From: Pseudomonadota bacterium
GTDB taxonomy: Bacteria > Myxococcota_A > UBA9042
DNA: 64,000 bases
Assembly (NCBI GenBank): GCA_005792545.1
Contig: SXRM01000383.1
Coordinates: forward strand, 10,562 to 74,561
Reading direction: 5' to 3'
In this document: positions 4,945-63,072 of the stretch, one piece after another
How positions within the stretch are numbered: position 1 is the stretch's first letter
How the letters are laid out: every line of letters begins with the position of its first letter
Notes under the pieces: model-generated
What the model was told of the DNA's origin: nothing
The model's input: the letters and a program-made list of their open reading frames with translations, nothing else
Database searches by the model: none
Made by a program: the position numbers and the translations under genes

Positions 4945-6327
4945 ATGAGCACCGAACACAAGCACTTTACGCTGTTCAACCCCGACGCCAACTACGACTT
5001 CGTGGGTCGGCGCCAGCTGTACTACGCGCTGACCGGCATCGGTATCCTGGCGTCGATCATCGCGCTGGCGACCCTTGGCTTCAACAAGGGCATCGACTTC
5101 AAGGGCGGCAGCAAGCTCATCGTCGCGTTTGACGGCGCGGCCACTGTCGATCGCCATGCGGTGCACGACGCCGTCGCGGGGACCATCCAGCAGGCCACCG
5201 GCAAGAAAGACGTCGGCCAGGTCGAAGTGCAGGACTTCTCGACCGGCGCTGGCACTGGCGGCGGCAAGAAGCACTTTAGCGTGGTCACCGAGCTCACCTC
5301 GATGGTCACCGCTGAGAAGCGCACCGTGCTCACCGCTAAGCTCAAGGAGAAATTCCCCAAGGCCGACGTGCAGTGGGCGGCCGAAGGCGAGGACCGCGTG
5401 TTCCTGACGCTGGCCGATCCCGTCAAGGTGGCGCCGACCTACGAGACGCTGCGGGCGGTGTTCAACGAGGCCGGCTTCCCCAAGGTCGGCACCGGCTCGG
5501 ACGCGGAAAGCCAGCTCGACGTCAACCTGTTCCGGACCTTGCAGATGCTGCAGACCGAGACCAAGCAGGAAGCCGAGGTCAAAGCCGAAGAGGCCAAGCT
5601 GCGCGAGCAGAAGGCCAAGGAACTGACTGACCGCGCCGACAGCCGCTTTACCGTGGTCGTCGAGGAGTTCAAAGGCAAGATCGAGACCGGCCTGCAGGCC
5701 AAGTTTGGCAAGGGCTTTATCGGCGTCGAATCGAGCACTGCCATCTCGCCGTCGGTCGCCGATGATCTGATGAGCCAGGGTCTGGTGGCGATTCTGTACG
5801 CGATTGTCGGCATCATCCTGTACATCGTGATGCGCTTTGACGTCCGCTACGCCCCGGGGGCGCTGATTGCGCTGATTCACGACGTGGTGCTGGTCATCGG
5901 CGCTTTCTCGGTGGCGCAGGTCAAGTTCTCGATGCCGGTCATCGCCGCGGTGCTCACGGTCGCTGGCTATTCGATCACCGACACCATCGTGGTGTTCGAC
6001 CGGATCCGCGAGATGCAGGAGCGCCACGAGGGCGCCCCCATCGACGTCATCATCAACTCGGCGATCAACACCACCATGAGTCGGACGGTGCTGACGTCGT
6101 TGACGACCTTTATGACCTCGGTGTCGATTTTCTTGTTCGGCGGCGGGCTCATCCGCGACTTCGCGTTCGCGATGTGCATTGGCGTGGTGGTCGGTACCTT
6201 CAGTTCGATTTTCGTGGCGAGCCCCGTGTTCATGTGGCTGCACGAGCGTTTTGAGGCCCGCAAGGCCGCGATGGCCAAGGCCGGCGACAACCGCGCCCCG
6301 ATCCAGATCGCCCCAGCGCAGGGCTAG
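4945..6327 (+). CDS. secF: protein translocase subunit SecF (enlarged periplasmic domain)
   Basis: C-terminal block …ALIHDVVLVIGAFSV…VLTVAGYSITDTIVVFDRIRE… is typical SecF. The gene follows secD. Confidence 0.93.
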   Translation: MSTEHKHFTLFNPDANYDFVGRRQLYYALTGIGILASIIALATLGFNKGIDFKGGSKLIVAFDGAATVDRHAVHDAVAGTIQQATGKKDVGQVEVQDFSTGAGTGGGKKHFSVVTELTSMVTAEKRTVLTAKLKEKFPKADVQWAAEGEDRVFLTLADPVKVAPTYETLRAVFNEAGFPKVGTGSDAESQLDVNLFRTLQMLQTETKQEAEVKAEEAKLREQKAKELTDRADSRFTVVVEEFKGKIETGLQAKFGKGFIGVESSTAISPSVADDLMSQGLVAILYAIVGIILYIVMRFDVRYAPGALIALIHDVVLVIGAFSVAQVKFSMPVIAAVLTVAGYSITDTIVVFDRIREMQERHEGAPIDVIINSAINTTMSRTVLTSLTTFMTSVSIFLFGGGLIRDFAFAMCIGVVVGTFSSIFVASPVFMWLHERFEARKAAMAKAGDNRAPIQIAPAQG

Positions 6328-6428
6328 TCAGCGCCCCGTCCGGCACAACCGCCAGCGGCTGTCGTATGCGCCGCCGCGATCGCCGATAACCGTCGACAGC
6401 CGATCGCCAAGGTGGTCCAATCGGTGCC

Positions 6429-8159
6429 ATGCACGCCACCTGGACGCTACGCGAACCTGACTCTGCCCACTACGACAGCCTGCGCGCGGCCGGTCACGAC
6501 ACGCTGATTGCCCGTTTGCTGGCGCTGCGCGGCCTGCACGACCCCGCGAGCGCGCAGGCTTTTTTGACCCCGCAGCTGCGCGACCTGCCCGACCCGTACC
6601 AGTTGGCCGACTGCCAGGCCGCGGCCGAGCTGCTAGTGCGCGCAGTTCGCTCCGACTGGTCGATCTGCGTCTACGGGGACTACGACGTCGATGGTATCTC
6701 GGCGGCGGCGCTGTTGCACGATGTGCTGACCATGGCCGGCGGCCGGCCGCGGGTGTTCCTGCCCGACCGCATGCGCGACGGCTATGGCCTGCGGCTAGAG
6801 CGGCTGCACGAGCTCGCCGACCAGGGCGTAAAGCTGTTCATCTCGGCAGACTGTGGCAGCACGGCGGTCGCCGAAGTGGCGGCGATGCGAGCGCGCGGCA
6901 TTGACTTTGTGATCTGTGACCACCACGCGCTGGGGCCGTCGCTGCCGCCAGCGACCTGCCACCTCAACCCGCGCCGACCCGATTGTGGCTACCCGGACAA
7001 GAACCTGTGCGCGGTGGGTGTGGCATTCGTGCTGGCGCAGGCGTTCCGGCGCGCAGCTGTGCACGCGGACCTGTGTCCAGCCGAGGCCTTTGACCTGCGA
7101 TCGGTCATCGAACTGGCGGCGCTCGGCACCATCGCCGACGTGGTGGAGTTGAAGCACGTCAACCGCACGCTGGCCTGGCATGGGCTGCGCGCGCTCGGGG
7201 TGTCGGCGCGACCGGGACTGCGGGCGCTGGTGCGGCATCTGCCCGTCGGCGGCGTCGACGCCCAGAGGGTCGGTTTCGTGGTGGGTCCCAAGATCAATGC
7301 CGCCGGGCGGGTGGCGGAGCCGCGCACCGCGTTCGACGTGCTGACCGTGCGCGACGCCGACACCGCCGAGATGCTGGCCGTGCAACTCGACGTCGAGAAC
7401 AACCGCCGCAAGGCGCTGACCGACACCATGGTGGCAGAGGCGATGGAACTGGCGCGCGCGACCCCGGTGGCTGGCGCAGTGGTGGTTGGCCAGCACGGCT
7501 GGCATCCGGGCGTGGTCGGCATCGTGGCGGCGCGGTTGGTCGAGACCTTTCACATGCCGGCCTTTGCGATCGCAGTCGATGACAGCGGGACCGCGCGCGG
7601 TTCGGGGCGATCGGTGCCCGGCTACGATCTGGTTGGCGCTCTGCGCGAGTCGGGTTCGGATCTGCTGGACCGGTTTGGTGGCCACGCTTTTGCGGCCGGC
7701 ATCACCTTGCCGAGCGACGCGATCGACGCGCTGCGCCAACGCCTGAGCGAACATGCGGCCCAAAGGCTCGGTGCCACGCCGGCCACGCGCAACTTTGAGG
7801 TCGACGCCGAACTCTCGCCCGCCGACTGCGACCTGGCGCTGCTTGACCGCCTGGAGCGCCTGGAGCCGTTTGGCCGCGGCAACGAGGCACCGCGGTTCCT
7901 GCTGCGCAATGTCGAGGTGCGCGACCTGCAGGAGATCGGCAAGACCGGCGGCTGGGGGTCGGCGCGGCTGCATGTGCGCGGCGCCGGCAGCGCCCATTTT
8001 GCCCGCCCTGCGGTCAAGGCATTTGGTGCATGGCGCCTTTGGCAGGGCCGCAGCAACGGCGAACCGGTGGACGTTGTCTGCAAACTGCAGCGCAACAGCT
8101 ACAAGGGCAGCGTCTCGGTACAGGCGGTGGTCGATCTGGTGGCACCGGCGGCGTCGTGA
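6429..8159 (+). CDS. recJ: single-stranded-DNA-specific exonuclease RecJ
   Basis: DHH-family motifs are present (…VYGDYDVDGISAAALL…, …FVICDHHALG…, …GGHAFAAG…). Length 576 aa. Confidence 0.93.
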   Translation: MHATWTLREPDSAHYDSLRAAGHDTLIARLLALRGLHDPASAQAFLTPQLRDLPDPYQLADCQAAAELLVRAVRSDWSICVYGDYDVDGISAAALLHDVLTMAGGRPRVFLPDRMRDGYGLRLERLHELADQGVKLFISADCGSTAVAEVAAMRARGIDFVICDHHALGPSLPPATCHLNPRRPDCGYPDKNLCAVGVAFVLAQAFRRAAVHADLCPAEAFDLRSVIELAALGTIADVVELKHVNRTLAWHGLRALGVSARPGLRALVRHLPVGGVDAQRVGFVVGPKINAAGRVAEPRTAFDVLTVRDADTAEMLAVQLDVENNRRKALTDTMVAEAMELARATPVAGAVVVGQHGWHPGVVGIVAARLVETFHMPAFAIAVDDSGTARGSGRSVPGYDLVGALRESGSDLLDRFGGHAFAAGITLPSDAIDALRQRLSEHAAQRLGATPATRNFEVDAELSPADCDLALLDRLERLEPFGRGNEAPRFLLRNVEVRDLQEIGKTGGWGSARLHVRGAGSAHFARPAVKAFGAWRLWQGRSNGEPVDVVCKLQRNSYKGSVSVQAVVDLVAPAAS

Positions 8160-26436: not shown

Positions 26437-26715
26437 TTACTTGCCGTCGACCTTGTTCTTGAGCTCCAAGCCGACTTTGAAGAACGGCATCTTCTTGGGG
26501 CCAACCTTGACCGCAGTGCCCGTCTTGGGGTTGCGACCGGTGTACGCTGGGTAGTTGCGCACAGTGAAGTTGCCGAAGTTGCGGATCTCGATGCGCTCGT
26601 CCTTCTTCATCGCGTCGACCATCAGGTCGAAGATCTTGTTGACAACGGTGGACGCCTTGTCCTTGGTCAGGTTGGCTTTGGACGCGACGGCTTCGATCAG
26701 GTCGGACTTGGTCAT
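26437..26715 (-). CDS. integration host factor subunit (IHF-beta-like), HU family
   Basis: [10 protein letters not shown]…[47 protein letters not shown] is close to the HimD pattern (…RIEIRGFGSF…GRNPKTG…). Confidence 0.88.
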
Positions 26716-26992
26716 GGCAGGGCCTCTGGGTTGGCGGGTTGCGCAGCGGGTGCGGCAACCGGTTGATAGCATGGACAGCGGAACCGTTGGGACAAATGCG
26801 CTCGCCCACGGATGCGGACAAGCGCGCCGTCTGGGCGGTCGCGGGACGTTGCATCGGCGGCGAGGCGCTGCGGCGGTGGCGGCCCCGAAACCGGTTTGCA
26901 GCCCGTCGGAGCATCGGGCGCTGGACCCAACCCCTTGAACTGGCTGCGAGATCCTCGCCTGCGCGACCCCGCGCGGCAAGGGGATGCGGAGT

Positions 26993-34620: not shown

Positions 34621-36192
34621 TCAATCGCCGCCGGTCGGCACCTGGTACCACTTGCGCGTCCACTCGGTCAGCATGTTGTCGTCGGTGACAAACGGCGTAT
34701 GCAAGGTCCGTTCAACCAGCTTGGCGCAGGTTTCCGCCTGGCCGCCGTCCGGGCCATAGGTGCTCTGGTCGGCCAGGCGCAGGATTTCGTCCAACCGCGC
34801 GCGGTGCGACGGTTGGGTCAGGTCGAAGATCTTGCGACCGTCGACCACGATCTGCTCCAGCTCCGCGCGCCAGCGGTGGCGATCGAGCACCACCGGTTCA
34901 TCGCTCAGGTACACGAAATTGATGATGCGCAGCCCGTGCTTGAACGCCGAGCAACCGGTCTTTTGGGCGGTCTCGCTCCAGGTGGTGTTGTAGACGAACA
35001 GGCCACCGGGGTTCAGGTGGGCCTTGACCAGCTGCAAGTACTCCATGCTCAGCAAGTCCGTGATGTTGCCGCGCCAGTGCCAGGTGGTGTTCTGCAGCAC
35101 GGTGTCGAATTTCTCGGTCGGATGGGCGCGCAGCCAGCGGCGGCCATCGTCGAACACCAGGTGCACCTTGGGGTTTTTTAGCAGCGACTGCACCTCGGGG
35201 AACTTGCCGACCAGCTCGGGATAGCCAGGGTTGATCTCGACTACGGTCAGATCGGTCACGCCGGGCAGGTGCGCCAGCACCTGCGCCCAGGAGCCCGACG
35301 ACAAGCCAATCATCAGCACTTTTCCGGTCTTGCGCGGCAAGCCTGCCAGCGCATAGGCCCGCACGATCAAGTTGCGATCGTGCACGACGTCGGTGTTGAA
35401 CACGCCGTCGTACATGCCGCCGCCAAAGATCGCGCCGTCCTGCGACACCGTGATGACGCCCGAGCGGTTCTCGACCACGTGGGCAAAGCGCTGGCCCTCG
35501 TACTTCTTTTTGTACATCAGCTTTTCGTACATACCGGCGTGCAGGCTTGGCCCAGCCAGGGCGCCGACCACCGCAAACAGCGGCAGCACCATCGCCCCCA
35601 CGGCCTTGGGCACGGCCTCGCTACAACTGGCCCACCACAAGACCGACGTCAGCATGACGCCCAGCACCATCAGTAGCGCCGAGATGTGCTGCAGCGGCAG
35701 CACCTGCATCAGCACGAACCCGGTCAGCAGCGACCCAAGCACGCTGCCGGCGATGTTGGCGAGGTACAGGTAGCTCAGCTTTTCGCCGACCTCGGCGTTG
35801 GCTTCGATGCCGTAGTGGGCGACCAGCGGCAAGATCGCGCCCATCAGCCCCGCAGCCAGGGCCACCGCCGCGAGCGAAAACGCGTAGGTGGCAAACGTCA
35901 CCAGGTGCGCCACTGCCGGCACCAGCGCAAAGCTGACCACCGTGGAGGCGAGCACCAGGCCCGCCGGCCAACGCAGCCGCTTGGGATCGCCGCCGGTGCC
36001 GACCTCGTCGCAAACCTTGCGCGCGCCCAGGCTGCCAAAGGCGATGCCGGCCAGGTAGGCGCCGAGCATCACGCCGAAACTGGACGGCGCGCCGCCGGTC
36101 AGGTAGCCGTAGACGCGAAACCACACCATCTCATACGAGAGGGCAATGTAGCCGGCAAGACCGGTGACCAGAAGCGCCAGGCGAAACGTCAT
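34621..36192 (-). CDS. fused polytopic-membrane (MFS-like) / spermidine-synthase-like protein
   Basis: The N-terminal about 230 aa contain multiple TM helices (MTFRLALLVTGLAGYIALSYEMVWFRVYG…). The C-terminal Rossmann domain is …KVLMIGLSSGSWAQVL…VVEINPGY…FDDGRRWL…FDTVLQNT…NPGGLFVYN, which has the spermidine-synthase layout but with altered GGGDG and D-x-x-D-P motifs. Confidence 0.75.
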   Translation of the reverse strand: MTFRLALLVTGLAGYIALSYEMVWFRVYGYLTGGAPSSFGVMLGAYLAGIAFGSLGARKVCDEVGTGGDPKRLRWPAGLVLASTVVSFALVPAVAHLVTFATYAFSLAAVALAAGLMGAILPLVAHYGIEANAEVGEKLSYLYLANIAGSVLGSLLTGFVLMQVLPLQHISALLMVLGVMLTSVLWWASCSEAVPKAVGAMVLPLFAVVGALAGPSLHAGMYEKLMYKKKYEGQRFAHVVENRSGVITVSQDGAIFGGGMYDGVFNTDVVHDRNLIVRAYALAGLPRKTGKVLMIGLSSGSWAQVLAHLPGVTDLTVVEINPGYPELVGKFPEVQSLLKNPKVHLVFDDGRRWLRAHPTEKFDTVLQNTTWHWRGNITDLLSMEYLQLVKAHLNPGGLFVYNTTWSETAQKTGCSAFKHGLRIINFVYLSDEPVVLDRHRWRAELEQIVVDGRKIFDLTQPSHRARLDEILRLADQSTYGPDGGQAETCAKLVERTLHTPFVTDDNMLTEWTRKWYQVPTGGD

Positions 36193-36220
36193 GGGTAGCC
36201 TTGGGGCAAAGGGGGCAAAA

Positions 36221-36571
36221 TCACAGGTCGCCGTCGAGGTCGGCCCACAATAGGCGCGACAGCACGAGGTCTTGAAGGTCATCGGGCACGGGCTGGGCGC
36301 TCAACAGCACCGGCGCCGCGGCAATGGCCCGCGCCAACTGCCCGGGATCACTGACGGCACGCAAGCGAACCACGCCATTTTCGTCTTCTAAAATCGCGCT
36401 TGGTCCAGAGCTACAGGCAGACAGGCAACTCGACCTGCCGACCTCGAGGGTGCGACCGTGGGCTGCGGCGGCTTTCTTGGCGGCGGTGGTCAACCGCGCC
36501 AACGACGCCATCGGCGCGGGGCGCGGACAGCCGGTGCATAGCATCACGCGCAACTGCGGGGCTGCGGTCAT
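36221..36571 (-). CDS. small 4-Cys metal-binding protein (thioredoxin-like [2Fe-2S] ferredoxin / DUF1636-like)
   Basis: …VMLCTGCPRP…SSCLSACSSGPSAILEDENG… has C-x2-C … C-x3-C spacing. Its start overlaps the upstream gene's stop by 4 nt. Confidence 0.5.
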   Translation of the reverse strand: MTAAPQLRVMLCTGCPRPAPMASLARLTTAAKKAAAAHGRTLEVGRSSCLSACSSGPSAILEDENGVVRLRAVSDPGQLARAIAAAPVLLSAQPVPDDLQDLVLSRLLWADLDGDL

Positions 36572-37347
36572 TTGCCGAGCGCCTCGGGCACGAACAGCGC
36601 GTCTGGCAGTTGCGTACGGGTGTCGATGTCGCGGGTCTCGACGGTGGTGACCGAGTTTCGCAGGTGGTTGAGCATGCGGAACTTTTTCATCACGGTCCTG
36701 CCGGGCTCGCCGGCCTGCACCTGTTCGACGACCAGCGTTTTGACGTGGGCGCCGGCTTTGTCGAAGAACTTGATCTGGCGCGCCACAAACAGGCGGTCGT
36801 CAATCCACAACTGCACCTTGCCGTAGGCGTCTTCGCTGTCGGTGATGGCAACCTCGATTCGGGTGCATGGCGCGCCGCCAATGGCCTCGCTGCCGGCCAG
36901 CTTGGCCTCACCGGTCTGCAAGCCGCGGCCTTGCAGGTCGCCGAACGAAAAATCGGTGCCCATGAACGCTTCGTTGCGCTGTGAGCCACTGATGCGCCGC
37001 AACCGCCCGGTCTTGGGCAGCCACAGGTACTGGCTGGCGGCGCCGCCACCTTCTTCGAGAATGAGCAGTTCGGTGCCGACCGCGTCGGCGGGCTCCAAGA
37101 AGGTCACCCGCGACTTGAGCCGGCCGTCCTTGCCGCGCACCACGCGGCTTTGGGTCAGCCAGGTCTTGGATTTGCCACTGGCCAGAGTCAACGTGACCGC
37201 AGTCTTGCTCTGGCCGGCCTGAAAACCGCTGGCGTTGCGGTCGTTGGTGGCCTGCAGGACCTTGCGCGCAGCGGGGTCGTCGGCCGCCAGACAGGGATCG
37301 GCTGCCACAAGAGTCAGTGCGATCGCGATGGCCAGCAAGATGCGCAT
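36568..37347 (-). CDS. LolA-like 'outer membrane lipoprotein-sorting' family protein (DUF1329-related)
   Basis: Signal is MRILLAIAIALTLVAADPCLAA. …YLWLPKTGRLRRISGSQRNEAFMGTDFSFGDL… is the hallmark stretch of that family as I remember it. Confidence 0.65.
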   Translation of the reverse strand: MRILLAIAIALTLVAADPCLAADDPAARKVLQATNDRNASGFQAGQSKTAVTLTLASGKSKTWLTQSRVVRGKDGRLKSRVTFLEPADAVGTELLILEEGGGAASQYLWLPKTGRLRRISGSQRNEAFMGTDFSFGDLQGRGLQTGEAKLAGSEAIGGAPCTRIEVAITDSEDAYGKVQLWIDDRLFVARQIKFFDKAGAHVKTLVVEQVQAGEPGRTVMKKFRMLNHLRNSVTTVETRDIDTRTQLPDALFVPEALGK

Positions 37348-37358
37348 GGGAACCTCGC

Positions 37359-38168
37359 CTACGCCGGCCGGGCGTGCAGCCACGCCTTGGTGCGGGCGTG
37401 CTCGGGGGCGCGCTCGGTGCGCTTGACCCGGTAGCCACAGCCGCGCGAGATCAGTTGCACCGTGTGCGACCGACCGGGAAACGCGGCTTTGAGCTCGCTC
37501 AGCACCGCATCGGTGTCGAAAAACTTGCACGAGAAAATGTCGAAGTAGGCGCGATCACTGGCCTGTTCGATGTGCACCGCGATGTGCGATTCGGCAATCA
37601 TGGTCATGGCCGACAGCCAGCCGCCGCCATCGGGGCCGTTGGTGTCGTTGGACCGCAGCACATACGGCCGCATGATAGGGGTCATGTCGATGCGCGGCGG
37701 CAGGTTGTCGAACAGCCGGAACAGGCCGTCCATGTCGCGCGGTCCCGAGTAGCCGTCGATGTTGAGCAGCAGGTGCGGGCCGAAGTCTTCGCTGGGATGC
37801 ACCGGCACTTCGTCGAACGGCCGCGGCCGGCGCGCCGTGTGGACCTCGACCGAGCGCACCGGCAGTGCGTTCTGGATAAACGCATTGGCCTCATGGACAT
37901 CGAACGCCCGCGGCGCCACCAGGTCCACGAAGTAGCACTCGCGAAAGCTGAACGTGTGCAGCGTCAGGTGCCCGCCCGGCAGAAACACAAACGCGCTGAT
38001 GCCGCAGTCGTCGGGCTCGACGCCGTTGTAGTACGGTAAAAGCATCGGCGGCATGGCGGGTTGCAGCCCAAGGCGCACCGGCAGCTCTTCAATGAGCTCG
38101 TGAATCAGCCGGATGTCGTCAAAGCGCGATCGGTGACCGCCAAAACCGTCGAGCGTATAGTGCAGCAT
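37359..38168 (-). CDS. tandem-duplicated S-adenosylmethionine-decarboxylase-like (SpeD/SpeH fold) pyruvoyl enzyme
   Basis: The N-terminal half has …ISAFVFLPGGHLTLHTFSF…FVDL…, with GGH replacing the ESH processing site. The C-terminal half has …SAMTMIAESHIAVHIEQ…YFDIFSCKFF…, with an intact E-S-H self-cleavage motif and the D.F.C motif. Only the last 269 codons of the track ORF are used. Confidence 0.7.
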   Translation of the reverse strand: MLHYTLDGFGGHRSRFDDIRLIHELIEELPVRLGLQPAMPPMLLPYYNGVEPDDCGISAFVFLPGGHLTLHTFSFRECYFVDLVAPRAFDVHEANAFIQNALPVRSVEVHTARRPRPFDEVPVHPSEDFGPHLLLNIDGYSGPRDMDGLFRLFDNLPPRIDMTPIMRPYVLRSNDTNGPDGGGWLSAMTMIAESHIAVHIEQASDRAYFDIFSCKFFDTDAVLSELKAAFPGRSHTVQLISRGCGYRVKRTERAPEHARTKAWLHARPA

Positions 38169-38232: not shown

Positions 38233-39861
38233 ATGGTGCAAAAGGGGTGTGCGGTGCGCACACGCGCCAACTTGCCGACGATCCGCGTGGCGATCTGGCT
38301 GTGCGTGGCCAGTTGGCCGGCGCATGCGCTCGCCCAAGCCATAGTGCCGGCGCTGACGGCGACCGCGACGGTGCTGGATGAATTCGGCGATGGCGGCGCC
38401 GTGGCGGAGTCGCCGGCAGAGGCACCGCCAGCCGGGCCGACGCTGTTCTGGGGCGCTTGGGTCGGCGTGCTCGGGCTGGATATCGCTGCCGAAGACCCGG
38501 CCGAAGACGTGCTGGCGCTGCGCAATCGCCTGGATCTGGACGTCAAGCACCCGCTGCCCGGTGGGCTGCAGGTGCGCCTCTCCGCCCGCATGCTGCACCG
38601 GGCGCAAGTAGGCCACCAGGGTGCGATCACCAAGCCTGCCTTTGCGGCCGATTTGCCCGATCTGGGCATGCGCTACGATCTGGACAGCCAGCTTCGCTTC
38701 GCCAACCTGCAGTGGTCCGCCGATTGGGGTCGGCTCACCGTCGGTCGCGACACCGTCAACTGGGGGGCGCTGGAGCTGCAAAGCGCGCTGCGGTTCCTAC
38801 ACCCGATGGACTTGAGCAACGGCCTGGTCGGCAGCCTCGGCAACGCCGAAGAGTCGCCGCTGCTGCCGTCGTGGTTGCTGCGCCTGGAGCGCCCGCTGGG
38901 GCCAGGCCAGCTCGATGTGGTGTTCTTACCGTTCTTTGATCAGCACCGGTTTTCGCCGTTTGCCACTGACGCCGCCTTCGTGCGGCCCGGCCAGGGTCCG
39001 GAGCTGTCGGGGTCGCTCGCGGTGTTGCTGCGGAGGCTGGACCTGCGGCTAGACCGCCAGCTGTCGCAGGCGTTGATGAGCGCGCTGCGGCCTGCCAGCG
39101 ACACGCCGCTCGATGGCACGCCGGCAGCGCGCTGGCGGACGACACTTGGCCAATTCGACGTTGCGCTGGTCGCAGCGTGGGCTTGGGACCGCCTGCCCGA
39201 GCTGCACCTAGATCAGGACCTGCTGCTGTTGCTGTCACGCACGGCCGACGCTGGCTTTGACACGGCCAAGCTGGCGTCGATGTTTGCCGATCCGGCGGTG
39301 GCGGCGGCCGCCGAGCGCGCCAAGGGCAAGACCGTGGCGGACCTGGCGGAGGCGACCTGGCGTCGACGCGGCATCGTGGGCGTGGAGGCCCAAGGCGAAC
39401 TCGCGCAGGGGTGGATGGCGCGCGGCGAATTGGCGTGGAGCCACCAACGGGTATTCATGGACACCGGCTTCCGACCGCTGCTGTCGCCCCTGGCGCAGGG
39501 AGGCGTCGGGCTGGAGCGCAACTGGGGCGACCGCGCCGCGGCGGTGGTGGAATTCAGCGGCCAGTGGGCCTACTTGGTGCCCAAAGACACCGAGCTGATG
39601 CTGGCAGCGGCGCTGCAGTGGCAAGTAGGCGGCGGACTGCTGGTGCGCTGGGGCGAGGCCGACGCCTGGTCGGCGCAACTGGGCGGTTACTACGGCGTGA
39701 CGTTGCGGGACTGGGCGGTGGCGCCGCGCGTGGCGTGGCAGCTGGGCGATCGCTGGCAGGCGACCGTTGGCGCTGTGGTGGCCGATGGCCCGACCAACTC
39801 GATGGGCGGGTGGTTCGGCGCCGATGATCAGGTGCTTTTCGAGGCACGGCGCACGTTCTGA
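38233..39861 (+). CDS. outer-membrane beta-barrel candidate, DUF1302-like
   Basis: Signal is …IRVAIWLCVASWPAHALA. …WGRLTVGRDTVNWGALE… resembles the DUF1302 'RlGrQ.v.WGe' motif. The C-terminus ends …EARRTF (aromatic terminal residue). The start could also be 38167. Confidence 0.6.
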   Translation: MVQKGCAVRTRANLPTIRVAIWLCVASWPAHALAQAIVPALTATATVLDEFGDGGAVAESPAEAPPAGPTLFWGAWVGVLGLDIAAEDPAEDVLALRNRLDLDVKHPLPGGLQVRLSARMLHRAQVGHQGAITKPAFAADLPDLGMRYDLDSQLRFANLQWSADWGRLTVGRDTVNWGALELQSALRFLHPMDLSNGLVGSLGNAEESPLLPSWLLRLERPLGPGQLDVVFLPFFDQHRFSPFATDAAFVRPGQGPELSGSLAVLLRRLDLRLDRQLSQALMSALRPASDTPLDGTPAARWRTTLGQFDVALVAAWAWDRLPELHLDQDLLLLLSRTADAGFDTAKLASMFADPAVAAAAERAKGKTVADLAEATWRRRGIVGVEAQGELAQGWMARGELAWSHQRVFMDTGFRPLLSPLAQGGVGLERNWGDRAAAVVEFSGQWAYLVPKDTELMLAAALQWQVGGGLLVRWGEADAWSAQLGGYYGVTLRDWAVAPRVAWQLGDRWQATVGAVVADGPTNSMGGWFGADDQVLFEARRTF

Positions 39862-40056
39862 TCGTCCTGGTGGCAGGTCGGTCAGCGGCAGGCGGTGCGA
39901 TCCCATGCCCAAAAACGACAACGCGCCCCCGGTCCGAGGCAGCCGCTTTGGGGGCGGTCGCGGTCGGATCGGTTGCGCGTTGGTCGACCAGCCGGTGTCG
40001 GCGCCGCAGCGGCGGAACCGGTGTCGGGCCTGGCCCCAGGTCGCAGAACAGTCTGG

Positions 40057-40341
40057 CTACTTGATGTGCTCGACGCCCTGCTTCTCGACGGTGGCCTTCC
40101 ACACTTTCTCGGGCAGCCACTTGGGGCGGTTGGTCGGCGCGGTGACTTCTTTGCGTCCGCCCTTGAACACGTGCACGCGCTTGGTGCCGCGCTCGCGCAG
40201 ACGGATCTCGGTGTAGCCGCGGGCGGCGGCCTTGAGCGCGGCACCGCGCGGCTGCGCGTTCGAGAACACGATGTTGGTGTCCTTGCCGTCCTCCATCAGC
40301 ACGAAGTTCTTCTTTTCCTTGGCGGCTTTCTCGTCGGCCAT
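40057..40341 (-). CDS. MC1-family chromosomal (DNA-bending) protein homolog
   Basis: MADEKAAKEKKNFVLMEDGKDTNIVFSNAQPRGAALKAAARGYTEIRLRERGTKRVHVFKGGRKEVTAPTNRPKWLPEKVWKATVEKQGVEHIK aligns along its full length with Methanosarcina MC1 as I recall it (…RNFVLRDE…VFTGKQPRQAALKAANRG…IRLRERGTKKVHVFKAWKEIVDAPKNRPAWMPEKISKPFVKKERIEKL). A GGGAGG RBS lies 4 nt before the ATG. Confidence 0.85.
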   Translation of the reverse strand: MADEKAAKEKKNFVLMEDGKDTNIVFSNAQPRGAALKAAARGYTEIRLRERGTKRVHVFKGGRKEVTAPTNRPKWLPEKVWKATVEKQGVEHIK

Positions 40342-40930
40342 GATGCCTCCCGTTGCTTTTGGACTGCATTGCGCGCAGTCGGTTGTGCGACGGCCGCGGG
40401 TGCGGCGGTCGGTCCAGGTAACCTTGCTTGGCGTACCACCGTCGAGGAACAGGGCGCCCGTTCGGAGGCAACCCTGTCGCGACGAAAGTACGGCGATCCG
40501 TCGATCGCGCCGTGTCGGACCGACTCCCGTCAGCCGGCCGCAGCGCATGATCACGGTCGCGGCGCGCATTGCGCCCTTGCGCCGCTGTATCGGCCGATTC
40601 GCGCAAGATTGCAAGGGGGCGCGCGTCTGGGGGTGCAGATTCGCTGAAAAAATCCAGACACCCGTCAGCGTACCAACCCGACAAGATCAGGCACATGGGA
40701 AAACACAGTATTGAAATTTCAATGTTTTTTCGGACGCCCGCCTGTGCAGCCATAAGCCGCGCGAGTCAAACACGGTCCATGATCACGGCCAGCGCACCGT
40801 GATCACACGCTGCGCGCAATGCCGATCGCACGATGGGTTGCTAACCAAACGTCAAAACCACGCGCCTCCGTGGTCGAGAGCGCAGCCGCCATGGTAGGGT
40901 CGCTGGCGCGGGCGCGCGACGCCGCGAGAG

Positions 40931-43489
40931 TTGACCTTGAATTTCGCCAGGCACGCCACGACCAGCGCGACCACCGCCCCGCCGGGATGGGGTGCACGCC
41001 TGCGCGCGTGGCTGGCACTGGCCATCGCCGCGTGCCTGGTCGGCGTGCTGGCTGGCGCCGAACCGGCGGCCGCTCGCTCCAAGGCCCAGGCCAAAAAGGC
41101 GAGCAGCGCTCACGACAAATCACCTACGTCCAAGGCAAAAGGGGCGGCCGCCAAAAGCGGAAAGGGGCGCAAGACTAGCGTCAAGCGAACTGGCACACGT
41201 CGGGCGGCCCGGGTGCGCGAAAAGCCCGGCAAGCTGCGCACGGTACGACCTGCCCCCGCCGCCAAAAGCGCCAAAGCCGTCCCGGAGCCAGAGGCCAACG
41301 ACGCGTCCGCCGACGAGGCGGTTGCGCTACCCGTCGCGGCGACCTGGAGCGAATTGCACCGGGTAGTGCAGTTGTGGCGGGTCGGCAAGAGCGGGCGCAT
41401 TGCGGACGACCTGCAGCGGCTGCAACGGGCCAAGGACAAGGATCTCGCCGCCGCCGCCTCCCACGTGCTGGCGCGACTGTGGGCGCGCCAGGGTCATGGC
41501 ACTGCCGCCGCCAAGGCGCTGAGCAAGACCAAAATCGTCGCCGACAGCGCGCCAGCGGCACATCGCTGGGCGACCATTGAGGTGGCGCAGGCGCAGGGCA
41601 AGACCAAGCAGGCGCTGGACAAGCTGCGGACGTTTCGGGTCGATTTCGGCAGTTTTCGCTGGGCGGCTGCCGACCTGCTGTTTTCGCGGCTGCACGAAAA
41701 GGTCGGACCCGCCGGGGCTGCGGCACAAACTGCGCTGGATCTTTACGACAAAAGCGCTGAGCACCTGCCGCGCGACGAACTGCTGGCGCGGGCGGCGCGC
41801 ATGCTGGCCGGCGTGGACCGCGACCGCAGCCACAAACTGTGGAAAAAGCTGCTGCTGACTCATCCTGAGTCGGAGTACGTGGACGAGGCGGCGCAGGCAG
41901 TGCCGCTAGAGTCGTTGACCCAGGCCGAGCAGTTCGAACGGATGGTGACGCTGTTTTCGCGGCGGGCCTACGAGCGCTGCCGGTCGGTCGGCGTGCTGCT
42001 GTGGGTCCAGGGCTATCGGCGCAACGAGGTCGGCTACTTTTTGGGCAAAATCGGCAGCGAGCGGCTGCGCGACAACTACCCCGATGCAGCGATGTACCTG
42101 GCAGAGGCGGCCACGCCGGAGGCGCCGCTCTACCAAAACGCGCTGCCGTCGTACGCGCTGGTGCTCGGCAAGATCGGCAAGACCGACGAGGCCATCGCTC
42201 GCTACGACCAGTGGCTGCGGCACTTTGCCCATGTCAAGAACGACCGTCGCATCGACCTGCACTATGACCGCGCGCGCACATTGCACATGGCGGGACGAAG
42301 CTTGCAGGCCGCGCGCGACTTGGGCGCGGCGCTCGACCAGAACGAAAAAGACATCGATGTCGGCAAGTACCGTTGGTTCGTCGGCTTTTGGACGCTGCTG
42401 GGCGGCAAGCCGGCCGAGGCCATCGAGCAGTTGCGACCGCTAATGCCCAACAGCAATCCGCTGGTCGGCGCCAAGGCGCGCTACTGGGTCGCCAAGGCGC
42501 AGGACAAGCTCGGCGACCGCAAGGCCGCCGTCGAGACGCTGCTGCAGCTTGTGGACAAGTACCCGCTGACCTATTACAGCGGGCTGGCCGAAAACCTGCT
42601 GCAAGACTGGGGACTTGCCGACAAGCTGCTGCCGCACGAGGACTTTTCGAAGGTGCCCGTGCAGGCGGCCGACCCGTTTGCCGGCATGCGCATGACCGAC
42701 AACCTGCGCGCGCTGCGGCTAGCGACTGCGCTCGGCGAGCCGGACGTAGCACGGGCGGCGTGGGACACCTTGCAGGCGGGTCTGCGCATGGAATTGGGCG
42801 CCGAGCGGCACAAAAAACTGCGCCTGGATCTCGCCGACGCCTTGGAGGAATTCGCCGACGCCAGAAGCGACGCTTTGCGCAATCACCGCGAAGTGTTGCA
42901 ACGGCCGCCGACCCGCGAAACCGTCGCGGCCTGGCGCGGCATCTATCCGCGGGCGTTTGCCACCCACGTCGTGGCGGCCGCCGAGCGGTGGGGAGCGCCG
43001 GAGTGGATGGTCTACGCGCACATGCTGCAAGAGTCGGCGTATCGGCCCGAGCTGATTTCGGGCGCGCCGGCCTACGGGCTCTTGGAATTGCTGGACCGCA
43101 CCGCCGTGCGGCTGGCGAGCGAAGCCAAAGAGGACTATCAGCTGTGGATGCTGATGCAGCCGGCCCACAACGTGCGCTGGGGCACCCAGTATCTGGCGGG
43201 GCTGTACAAGAAGTTTCACCGGCAGTTGCCGTTTGCGATCGCGTCGTACAACGGCGGACCGATGCTGATGAGCTACCACATGCGCCAGCAGGCCCGCCTC
43301 AATCGCAGTTTTGACGAGATGATTGACGACCTCGGGCCGCACGAGTCGCGCAACTATGTGCGCATGGTCATAGGCCACTTCTTGCGGTATCTGGCGATTT
43401 ACGAGCGGCCCGACAAGGCCAAGCTGTACCGCGATCAGCTGCTGCCGCGGACCTGGAACGAGGCGTGTCTGCCGGACCCGGACTACTGA
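40931..43489 (+). CDS. soluble lytic murein transglycosylase (Slt70-like) with basic N-terminal region
   Basis: The C-terminal catalytic domain is …MLQESAYRPELISGAPAYGLLELL…YLAGLYKKF…AIASYNGGP…. A superhelical repeat region lies upstream. The N-terminus is K/A-rich after a TM/signal. The TTG start is uncertain. Confidence 0.8.
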   Translation: MTLNFARHATTSATTAPPGWGARLRAWLALAIAACLVGVLAGAEPAAARSKAQAKKASSAHDKSPTSKAKGAAAKSGKGRKTSVKRTGTRRAARVREKPGKLRTVRPAPAAKSAKAVPEPEANDASADEAVALPVAATWSELHRVVQLWRVGKSGRIADDLQRLQRAKDKDLAAAASHVLARLWARQGHGTAAAKALSKTKIVADSAPAAHRWATIEVAQAQGKTKQALDKLRTFRVDFGSFRWAAADLLFSRLHEKVGPAGAAAQTALDLYDKSAEHLPRDELLARAARMLAGVDRDRSHKLWKKLLLTHPESEYVDEAAQAVPLESLTQAEQFERMVTLFSRRAYERCRSVGVLLWVQGYRRNEVGYFLGKIGSERLRDNYPDAAMYLAEAATPEAPLYQNALPSYALVLGKIGKTDEAIARYDQWLRHFAHVKNDRRIDLHYDRARTLHMAGRSLQAARDLGAALDQNEKDIDVGKYRWFVGFWTLLGGKPAEAIEQLRPLMPNSNPLVGAKARYWVAKAQDKLGDRKAAVETLLQLVDKYPLTYYSGLAENLLQDWGLADKLLPHEDFSKVPVQAADPFAGMRMTDNLRALRLATALGEPDVARAAWDTLQAGLRMELGAERHKKLRLDLADALEEFADARSDALRNHREVLQRPPTRETVAAWRGIYPRAFATHVVAAAERWGAPEWMVYAHMLQESAYRPELISGAPAYGLLELLDRTAVRLASEAKEDYQLWMLMQPAHNVRWGTQYLAGLYKKFHRQLPFAIASYNGGPMLMSYHMRQQARLNRSFDEMIDDLGPHESRNYVRMVIGHFLRYLAIYERPDKAKLYRDQLLPRTWNEACLPDPDY

Positions 43490-62756: not shown

Positions 62757-62828
62757 GGGCGAATAGCTCAGCGGTAGAGCGGCGCCTTTACACGGCGTTG
62801 GCCGCAGGTTCGATCCCTGCTTCGCCCA
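62757..62828 (+). tRNA. tRNA-Val (anticodon TAC)
   Basis: Hand-folded cloverleaf. Acceptor is GGGCGAA/TTCGCCC, D stem GCTC/GAGC, anticodon stem GCGCC/GGCGT with loop TTTACAC, and T arm GCAGG-TTCGATC-CCTGC. CCA is not encoded. Confidence 0.9.
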
Positions 62829-62900
62829 CCGTGCGGCAATTAGCCGGACTGCAGCGCATCCATGCTGCGGTCAATCGATGATGCTGCGGCGAATAGTTAC

Positions 62901-62974
62901 GGAGTGGTAGTTCAGTCGGTTAGAACGCTGGCCTGTCAAGCCAGAGGCCGCGGGTTCAAGTCCCGTCCGCTCCG
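62901..62974 (+). tRNA. tRNA-Asp (anticodon GTC)
   Basis: Hand-folded cloverleaf. Acceptor is GGAGTGG/CCGCTCC (one G-U pair), D stem GTTC/GAAC, anticodon stem CTGGC/GCCAG with loop CTGTCAA, and T arm GCGGG-TTCAAGT-CCCGT. Confidence 0.9.
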
Positions 62975-63072
62975 CCCCAAACAATCTGCGCGACCTGCAC
63001 CTGCCCAGCCGACCGGCTGACCGGTTTCGTCGTCCGTCGCGTCCAGCCTGGCGCTGGTCAGGGCTCGCCGCC

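Follow-up and report, generated by a model that had tools for sequence, protein, structure and literature searches.

The 64,000-nucleotide stretch analyzed here (hereafter the window), taken from contig SXRM01000383.1 of assembly GCA_005792545.1, encodes on its minus strand a 94-residue protein of the MC1 family of chromosomal proteins, MADEKAAKEKKNFVLMEDGKDTNIVFSNAQPRGAALKAAARGYTEIRLRERGTKRVHVFKGGRKEVTAPTNRPKWLPEKVWKATVEKQGVEHIK. The predicted product has a mass of 10.6 kDa and a pI of 10.16 (10.32 for the MC1 of Methanosarcina thermophila), with 22 lysine and arginine residues versus 12 aspartate and glutamate residues. A first-pass annotation made from the sequence had described this open reading frame (ORF) as an end-to-end match to Methanosarcina MC1, identical at about half of the positions and carrying four family strings, with a strong GGGAGG ribosome-binding site (RBS), a host-like GC content and about 590 bp of non-coding DNA in front of it, and had read it as an established gene in a cell that also has a classical IHF/HU protein. 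All of these points were borne out. The strings NFVL, QPRGAALKAAARG, IRLRERGTKRVHVFK and APTNRPKWLPEK are present, the GC content of the gene is 0.646 versus 0.670 for the window, and both the Shine-Dalgarno (SD) sequence and an IHF/HU-family gene were found (Table 1). The divergently transcribed neighbor, which encodes a lytic (murein) transglycosylase of the SLT type, lies 589 bp away, and this interval contains no ORF with a coding-type pattern of GC content at third codon positions (GC3). The GC3 of the MC1 gene itself is 0.92. This exceeds the values of all other candidate ORFs with a length of 250 aa or more in the window (0.75–0.88); overlapping ORFs of smaller size attain 0.89–0.92 in a few cases.

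Reading the frame from a TTG at position 40614 would extend it to 185 aa. This start was rejected, because homologues of the protein are 87–97 aa long, because the extension contains frame-breaking indels among close relatives, and because the TTG is part of a −35-like hexamer. In aligned relatives, the indels in the interval between the two divergent genes have lengths that are not multiples of three.

Table 1. Features of the window discussed in the text, in order of position.
Feature	Position	Strand	Evidence or remark
Large ORF, 2249 aa	11090..17839	-	
IHF/HU-family protein	26437..26718	-	Pfam Bac_DNA_binding, 103 bits
Three consecutive ORFs of ~800 aa	27088..34493	-	
Polyamine-type genes	34621..38168	-	
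Spermine/spermidine-synthase-like protein, 553 aa	34621..36282	-	
AdoMet decarboxylase	~37359..38168	-	
Weak terminator-like hairpin with T-rich tail	39924..39941	-	Terminator scan; ~115 nt past the MC1 stop
MC1-family coding sequence, 94 aa plus stop	40057..40341	-	Pfam MC1 100.6 bits, PDB 1T23, AlphaFold2 model, dN/dS; ATG at 40341-40339, stop within the interval
Putative 5' leader, ~238 nt, predicted structured	40342..40579	-	Transcription start inferred from the promoter-like box
Shine-Dalgarno GGGAGG	40346..40351	-	Direct sequence reading; 4 nt before the ATG
Promoter-like box	40586..40614	-	Comparative, inferred; −35 TTGCAA 40614-40609, 17-nt spacer, −10 GATACA 40591-40586
T-run	~40636..40641		~30 nt upstream of the −35-like hexamer
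Palindrome GTGATCAC	40799..40806		Between the SLT and MC1 genes
TPR and SLT lytic (murein) transglycosylase, 850 aa	40931..43489	+	Pfam SLT; divergent neighbor of MC1
Tandem tRNA-Val(TAC) and tRNA-Asp(GTC)	62757..62977	+	Sole Rfam and ARAGORN matches in the window

The Pfam model of the family (PF05854) matched the protein with 100.6 bits (cut-off 23; E = 6e-29) over profile positions 1–95 of 96 and residues 9–93. When compared by phmmer with the sequences of the PDB, the only match was M. thermophila MC1 (1T23/2KHL/2NBJ; E = 9.4e-21), and a global alignment of the two proteins gave 45 identical residues over 87 aligned positions (51.7%). No model of NCBIfam matched it. An AlphaFold2 model built on an alignment of 34 homologues had a mean pLDDT of 87 and predicted strands at residues 11–17, 20–28, 45–50, 55–67 and 79–92 and a helix at 31–40, thus reproducing the order expected for MC1 (β1-β2-helix-β3-β4-LP5 arm-β5). 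The protein therefore passes the PF05854 threshold, is homologous to a solved MC1, is a small basic single domain and, as described below, carries the contact residues of the family. It departs from the historical description of MC1 in its host, which is bacterial and not euryarchaeal, but an archaeal host is a trait of that description and not of the protein family. Taken together, these comparisons identify the protein as a genuine MC1, and its genome, as described further below, is genuinely bacterial.

Almost all of the residues by which MC1 contacts DNA are conserved. Nuclear magnetic resonance and mutagenesis of the M. thermophila protein defined three DNA-contact regions: R25 with Q23 and K30 on the helix, where the substitution of R25 by alanine or glutamine causes a more than 100-fold loss of affinity; a hydrophobic LP5 arm with P72, W74 and M75; and K85, K86, R88 and I89 on β5 (PMC3928310). 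In the phmmer alignment, Q23, R25, K30, K53, K54 and H56 of the archaeal protein correspond to Q30, R32, K37, K54, R55 and H57 of the window protein, and N70, R71, P72, W74, P76, K81 and K86 correspond to N71, R72, P73, W75, P77, K82 and K87, so that the LP5 arm reads N71-R72-P73-K74-W75-L76-P77. The changes of M75 to L76 and of I89 to V90 are conservative, and R88 is replaced by G89, at a position where glycine or lysine is common in MC1 proteins (PMC3928310). Among the 34 homologues, Q30, R32, K37, R55, H57, P73, W75 and K87 are invariant, and L76, P77 and K82 nearly so.

The genome around the gene is bacterial. The window encodes bacterial SecD, SecF, RecJ, TruA, aspartate-semialdehyde dehydrogenase (Asd), a PP2C phosphatase and a XerC/D-type recombinase, in addition to the SLT and IHF/HU-family proteins; the best NCBIfam matches of the latter were to IHF-beta, at 98 bits, which is under the 115-bit equivalog cut-off. 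An identical MC1 protein with the same neighbors is present in at least three assemblies made independently of one another (NCBI GCA_005776855.1 contig SXOF01000331.1, Logan, and ENA). A scan of GTDB, with each species represented by a single genome, yielded 46 MC1 loci. Nineteen of them (L001–L019) are high-GC (62–70%) contigs of metagenome-assembled genomes (MAGs), mostly labelled Myxococcota, Myxococcales or Deltaproteobacteria, whose sample names refer to lakes, groundwater, river water and activated sludge. The same SLT gene is the divergently transcribed neighbor of MC1 in 17 of the 19, and these 17 come under various project and sample names. Loci of this type, including those labelled 'Enterobacteriaceae' or 'Pseudomonadota', form one syntenic group on the basis of their common flanking ORFs.

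Across these 17 loci, identity to the window proteins falls from 88% to 50% for SLT and from 98% to 73% for MC1. Pairwise distances of the two proteins are correlated (Pearson r = 0.83, Mantel p ≤ 2e-4), and the divergence of MC1 is roughly half that of SLT, with a mean distance ratio of 0.46. The shared synteny and the correlated distances indicate that both genes were vertically co-inherited from the ancestor of a deep clade. The MC1 gene is moreover under strong purifying selection, as dN/dS between the window and L001, L002 and L003 was 0.03–0.04 at dS values of 0.13–0.69; values of 0.1–0.4 obtained against distant loci were set aside, since dS was saturated or biased by GC3. In total, close relatives of the protein were found in at least 21 species-level Myxococcota-type MAGs and in about 100 metagenome clusters at 90% identity, and the MC1 family as a whole is small, with 265 clusters at 50% identity in a set of 1.84 billion representatives.

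These data also bear on the possibility that archaeal DNA came into a bacterial contig by mis-assembly or mis-binning, or that the gene is a decaying recent import. Some MAGs do hold mis-binned MC1 contigs from Marine Group II (MGII) archaea: the loci labelled 'Salinimicrobium' (L022), 'Verrucomicrobiales' (L032) and 'Yoonia' (L043) are syntenic with MGII loci, which identifies them as such. At the window locus, however, the recurrence of the same protein and neighbors on independent assemblies, the arrangement with SLT in 17 related MAG loci and the low dN/dS all speak against an artefact, and the GC content and GC3 of the gene match those of a 67%-GC host, whereas most MGII loci have 43–50% GC and only a few reach 0.61. 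The conserved synteny, the selection and the composition exclude contamination, chimerism and pseudogenisation, and this explanation is effectively refuted. The public labels of L022, L032 and L043, and also those of L009, L015 and L017–L021, look wrong, and contigs labelled 'Rickettsiales' have a Myxococcota-like content (MopE-motif protein).

The first-pass annotation had regarded MC1 as characteristic of Methanosarcinales and Halobacteria and foreign to bacteria. Neither part of this view could be maintained: besides its presence in the Myxococcota-type MAGs, MC1 occurs in most MGII archaea (PMC7613761), and these are the nearest archaeal relatives of the window protein. After the bacterial loci, the next-best genomes of the GTDB scan were all MGII (Poseidoniales), with 58–68% identity, compared with 52% for M. 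thermophila and 37–41% for haloarchaeal MC1 proteins, including copies on megaplasmids. A neighbor-joining (NJ) tree, built on 87 columns and not confidently rootable, separated bacteria and MGII from the Methanosarcina-type and haloarchaeal-type proteins with 100% bootstrap support; within the former group, MGII (77%) and bacteria (55%) were each monophyletic, and thus sisters rather than nested one in the other. Both share the short loop after the helix. The arm sequence of the bacterial proteins is NRP as in Methanosarcina, and that of MGII is NGP or SAP. The retention of NRP together with the sister position argues that the bacterial clade did not arise from within the sampled diversity of MGII.

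A phylogeny had been proposed as the way to time the transfer. It united bacteria and MGII in one clade, in which the transfer may have run either way, as MGII itself gained MC1 horizontally according to Hocher et al. (PMC7613761), the gene being absent from other Diaforarchaea. The donor of the MGII gene could have been a planktonic bacterium resembling Myxococcota, or both groups could have received it from a third, unsampled lineage. The reciprocal monophyly of the two sisters, the horizontal gain in MGII and the Methanosarcina-like arm of the bacterial proteins would all suit such a course. On the other hand, the rest of the labelled family (Methanosarcina, haloarchaea) is archaeal, which points to an archaeal ultimate origin and makes a bacterial intermediate an extra step, and the tree has the limits given above; most representatives in the library are unlabelled. 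We therefore regard a bacterial or third-party donor as improbable. No mobile vector was found: by tblastn, none of 50,697 phage records matched MC1, and among plasmids the matches were confined to haloarchaeal megaplasmids (37–39% identity), with no bacterial plasmid.

Sequences upstream of the gene are consistent with its expression. SD-like motifs (GGAGG, GGGAG or GAGG) precede the ATG in all bacterial homologues compared. A promoter-like block, CTTGCAATCTTGCGCGAATCGGCCGATACAG, is invariant in the window, in L001 and L003, and in the more distant L002, while its flanks diverge. If transcription starts at this box, the mRNA would begin with a GC-rich leader for which a minimum free energy of −122 kcal/mol was calculated and which folds better than shuffled sequences (z = −2.9). 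An Alifold consensus of the leader from four close loci contained 13 pairs with compensatory changes, and the predicted fold includes a long helix that pairs the 5' end of the leader with a hairpin located just before the RBS. A search of Rfam with positions 39850–40950 gave no match at E ≤ 1. On the basis of these folding models, the segment may have a regulatory function as the leader of the MC1 mRNA. Downstream of the gene, the terminator-like hairpin was the only such site in positions 39700–41100, which corresponds to chance level (1 found, 1.4 expected).

Two further elements lie between the divergent genes. The palindrome GTGATCAC is invariant in the window, L001, L002 and L003 and occurs four times in the window versus 0.8 expected, and more distant loci have GATC-containing boxes at a similar place. 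The T-run is kept in many loci. Both are candidate sites for a regulator of the divergent promoters or for DNA bending at them. Altogether, the SD sequence, the GC3, the promoter-like box and the leader fit a well-expressed and possibly post-transcriptionally regulated gene, as far as sequence features can indicate; the established gene proposed by the first-pass annotation is thus corroborated by synteny, selection, composition and these signals, its expression being predicted from the latter. In MGIIa, MC1 belongs to the highly transcribed genes (PMC9723583).

We consider it likely that the window encodes a functional bacterial MC1 that acts as a DNA-bending nucleoid protein beside IHF/HU, and that was exchanged in an old inter-domain transfer and has been vertically inherited since. 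By homology, the protein would bind as a monomer to the concave side of sharply bent DNA. P73, W75 and L76 of the LP5 arm and K87 and V90 of β5 would sit in the minor groove, making two minor-groove contacts, and R32 would bridge the compressed phosphates and neutralize them as they approach. The protein would thus be a DNA-bending nucleoid-associated protein working alongside the IHF/HU of its host, presumably abundant and global in its action, and its gene would be transcribed from a conserved promoter of its own into an mRNA with a long leader. The gene would have entered or left the bacterial lineage by an old exchange with MGII, followed by vertical descent within uncultured Myxococcota that form one clade and live mostly in freshwater.

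Several observations weigh against this interpretation. Archaeal K22 and K85 are replaced by A29 and E86 in the window protein, which also lacks, as do the MGII proteins, the 6-residue loop that follows the helix. A Foldseek search of the PDB with the AlphaFold2 model missed 1T23 and 2KHL, the best match (E = 0.35) being to unrelated proteins, so that the fold assignment rests on sequence and on predicted viral models: against a viral library, Foldseek matched giant-virus MC1-domain models with a probability of 1.0 and TM scores of 0.6–0.75. In view of these models and of the sequence match to 1T23, we did not count the miss against family membership. With regard to the promoter, the pattern TTGCnn-N17-[C/G]ATAyn was aligned and found in 18 of 22 bacterial MC1 loci versus 0.6 expected in shuffled sequences, but it was derived post hoc from the same sequences, and the figure overstates its significance; a generic sigma-70 consensus scan called no promoter at MC1. 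Finally, mutants of DNA-binding proteins in Methanosarcina acetivorans, in a study that included mc1, grow better after stress (bioRxiv 10.1101/2025.11.24.690127), and a major, indispensable architectural role should therefore not be assumed.

A different view of the same protein is that it is a true bacterial MC1 with a specialized or local role, for example as a DNA protectant in stress or stasis or as an architectural cofactor acting at certain promoters, such as those of the divergent SLT gene or of flagellar genes. The divergent MC1-SLT pair has been kept over deep divergence, MC1 lies beside flagellar genes in two other contexts, and a long leader that appears to be structured points to regulated expression more than to constitutive expression. 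Furthermore, archaeal MC1 shields DNA from radiation, and the DNA-binding proteins of M. acetivorans matter mainly in stress and stasis (PMC7613761; bioRxiv 10.1101/2025.11.24.690127). Yet no partner gene is common to the three genomic contexts, the conserved residues are the ones used to bind the minor groove non-specifically and to bend DNA, and the high GC3 and strong SD sequence fit high expression. Bacterial IHF, moreover, combines local and global roles. A purely specialized function thus appears rather unlikely to us, and the reading as a DNA-bending nucleoid protein is retained. A stronger version of it can be put forward only tentatively: that an entire family- or order-level group of planktonic Myxococcota uses MC1 as a main component of its chromatin, on a par with HU, and that this state goes back to a single ancient exchange with MGII, with bacteria possibly as donors.

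The flagellar contexts were as follows. In L016, MC1 adjoins a bacterial flagellin gene (L016:4872-5711), and P0124, named 'chromosomal protein MC1 [Myxococcales bacterium]' by NCBI, is encoded beside flagellar rod genes, FliJ and a sigma-54 activator (L053/54; L053:22-2495, 6158-7135). There are no flagellar genes near MC1 in the window, and the match of its SLT protein to the flagellar lytic transglycosylase model was weak (81 bits, far under the cut-off of 234); a functional link between MC1 and flagella was thus not retained beyond an unproven hint. The flagellar neighbors and the weak SLT match suggest that these Myxococcota are flagellated. In L020 and L021, MC1 lies between TPR proteins and a MopE-motif protein. 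Among the library representatives placed near the bacterial clade, P0124 and P0065 have a bacterial genomic context and P0144 an archaeal-like one. Two other representatives, P0123 (293 aa) and P0129 (282 aa), combine AMMECR1 with a C-terminal MC1 that is 53–59% identical to the window protein, and may be true fusions or merged gene calls. P0219 (1775 aa) was discarded as an ankyrin-repeat false positive.

Other genes of the window were also noted. Polyamines also compact DNA, and polyamine-type genes are found near MC1, where a TP_0789-like protein is encoded between the AdoMet decarboxylase and the spermine/spermidine-synthase-like gene. The genes for the AdoMet decarboxylase and the TP_0789-like protein show synteny with MC1 solely in the closest relatives (L001–L003). 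The large minus-strand ORFs probably encode large secreted or surface proteins; in the three ~800-aa ORFs, the sole Pfam signal was a PKD-like domain in one of them.

With respect to earlier work, NCBI automatically names several orthologues 'chromosomal protein MC1 [Myxococcales bacterium]', and Burroughs et al. (2017) state in one sentence that bacterial HU may come with 'Fis, ... H-NS, MC1 or histones' (PMC5499826). Beyond that sentence, the full-text literature searched, which did not cover most subscription journals, contained nothing on the bacterial clade, neither on its function nor on its connection with MGII. The existence of bacterial MC1 is therefore known and automatically annotated, and the bacterial branch is uncharacterized in that literature. 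The first-pass annotation had allowed for a family already widespread and characterized in this lineage; it proved widespread, and no characterization came to light. No new mechanism or kind of protein is revealed here, and the mechanism to be expected is the known archaeal one.

Nucleoid proteins are usually held to be domain-specific, with HU, IHF and H-NS in bacteria and histones, Alba and MC1 in archaea. Compared with the archaeal prototype, M. thermophila MC1 (1T23, 2KHL, 2NBJ), the window protein is of the same family and length class, has the same predicted order of elements and a basic pI, and keeps R25, Q23, P72, W74, K86 and most of the basic patch; it differs in its bacterial host and in the missing loop after the helix. 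The MC1 proteins of MGII, its nearest archaeal relatives, are likewise encoded by stand-alone genes (about 87–89 aa), but read KKYFVL and IKKA where the bacterial proteins read KKNFVL and VWKA, and their genomic contexts are unrelated to those of the bacterial genes. Outside archaea, the MC1 domain is also known from giant viruses (Mimivirus gp275), whose MC1-like proteins are 16–33% identical, often longer, and reported to be oligomeric (bioRxiv 10.1101/2024.02.22.580433).

Two known exceptions to domain specificity are informative on how freely chromatin components can be swapped. The HBb histones of Bdellovibrio offer a parallel, being an archaeal and eukaryotic class of chromatin protein that is stable in predatory-type bacteria beside bacterial nucleoid proteins (PMC10627809, PMC11317129). 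Their fold is unrelated to that of MC1, and they have been found experimentally to be abundant and to bind DNA, whereas bacterial MC1 is known from its sequence. HTa of Thermoplasma is likewise a nucleoid protein transferred between domains and fixed in a lineage, but in the opposite direction, from bacterial HU to archaea, and with another fold (PMC7613761); HTa took over from histones as main chromatin protein, while IHF/HU remains in the present case. The window locus adds a third kind of exception and a rare instance of a chromatin protein common to two domains, an MC1 clade that has long been under strong purifying selection in bacteria that retain IHF/HU. It also offers, through phylogeny, an approach to gene exchange among archaea and bacteria of the plankton. 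With 94 residues and known contact positions, the protein lends itself to a cheap test of an archaeal DNA bender in a bacterial nucleoid and of what MC1 adds to HU/IHF. If MC1 does act at the level of HU in these Myxococcota, this would be the second independent case, after bacterial histones, of a nucleoid partly run on an 'archaeal' architectural protein.

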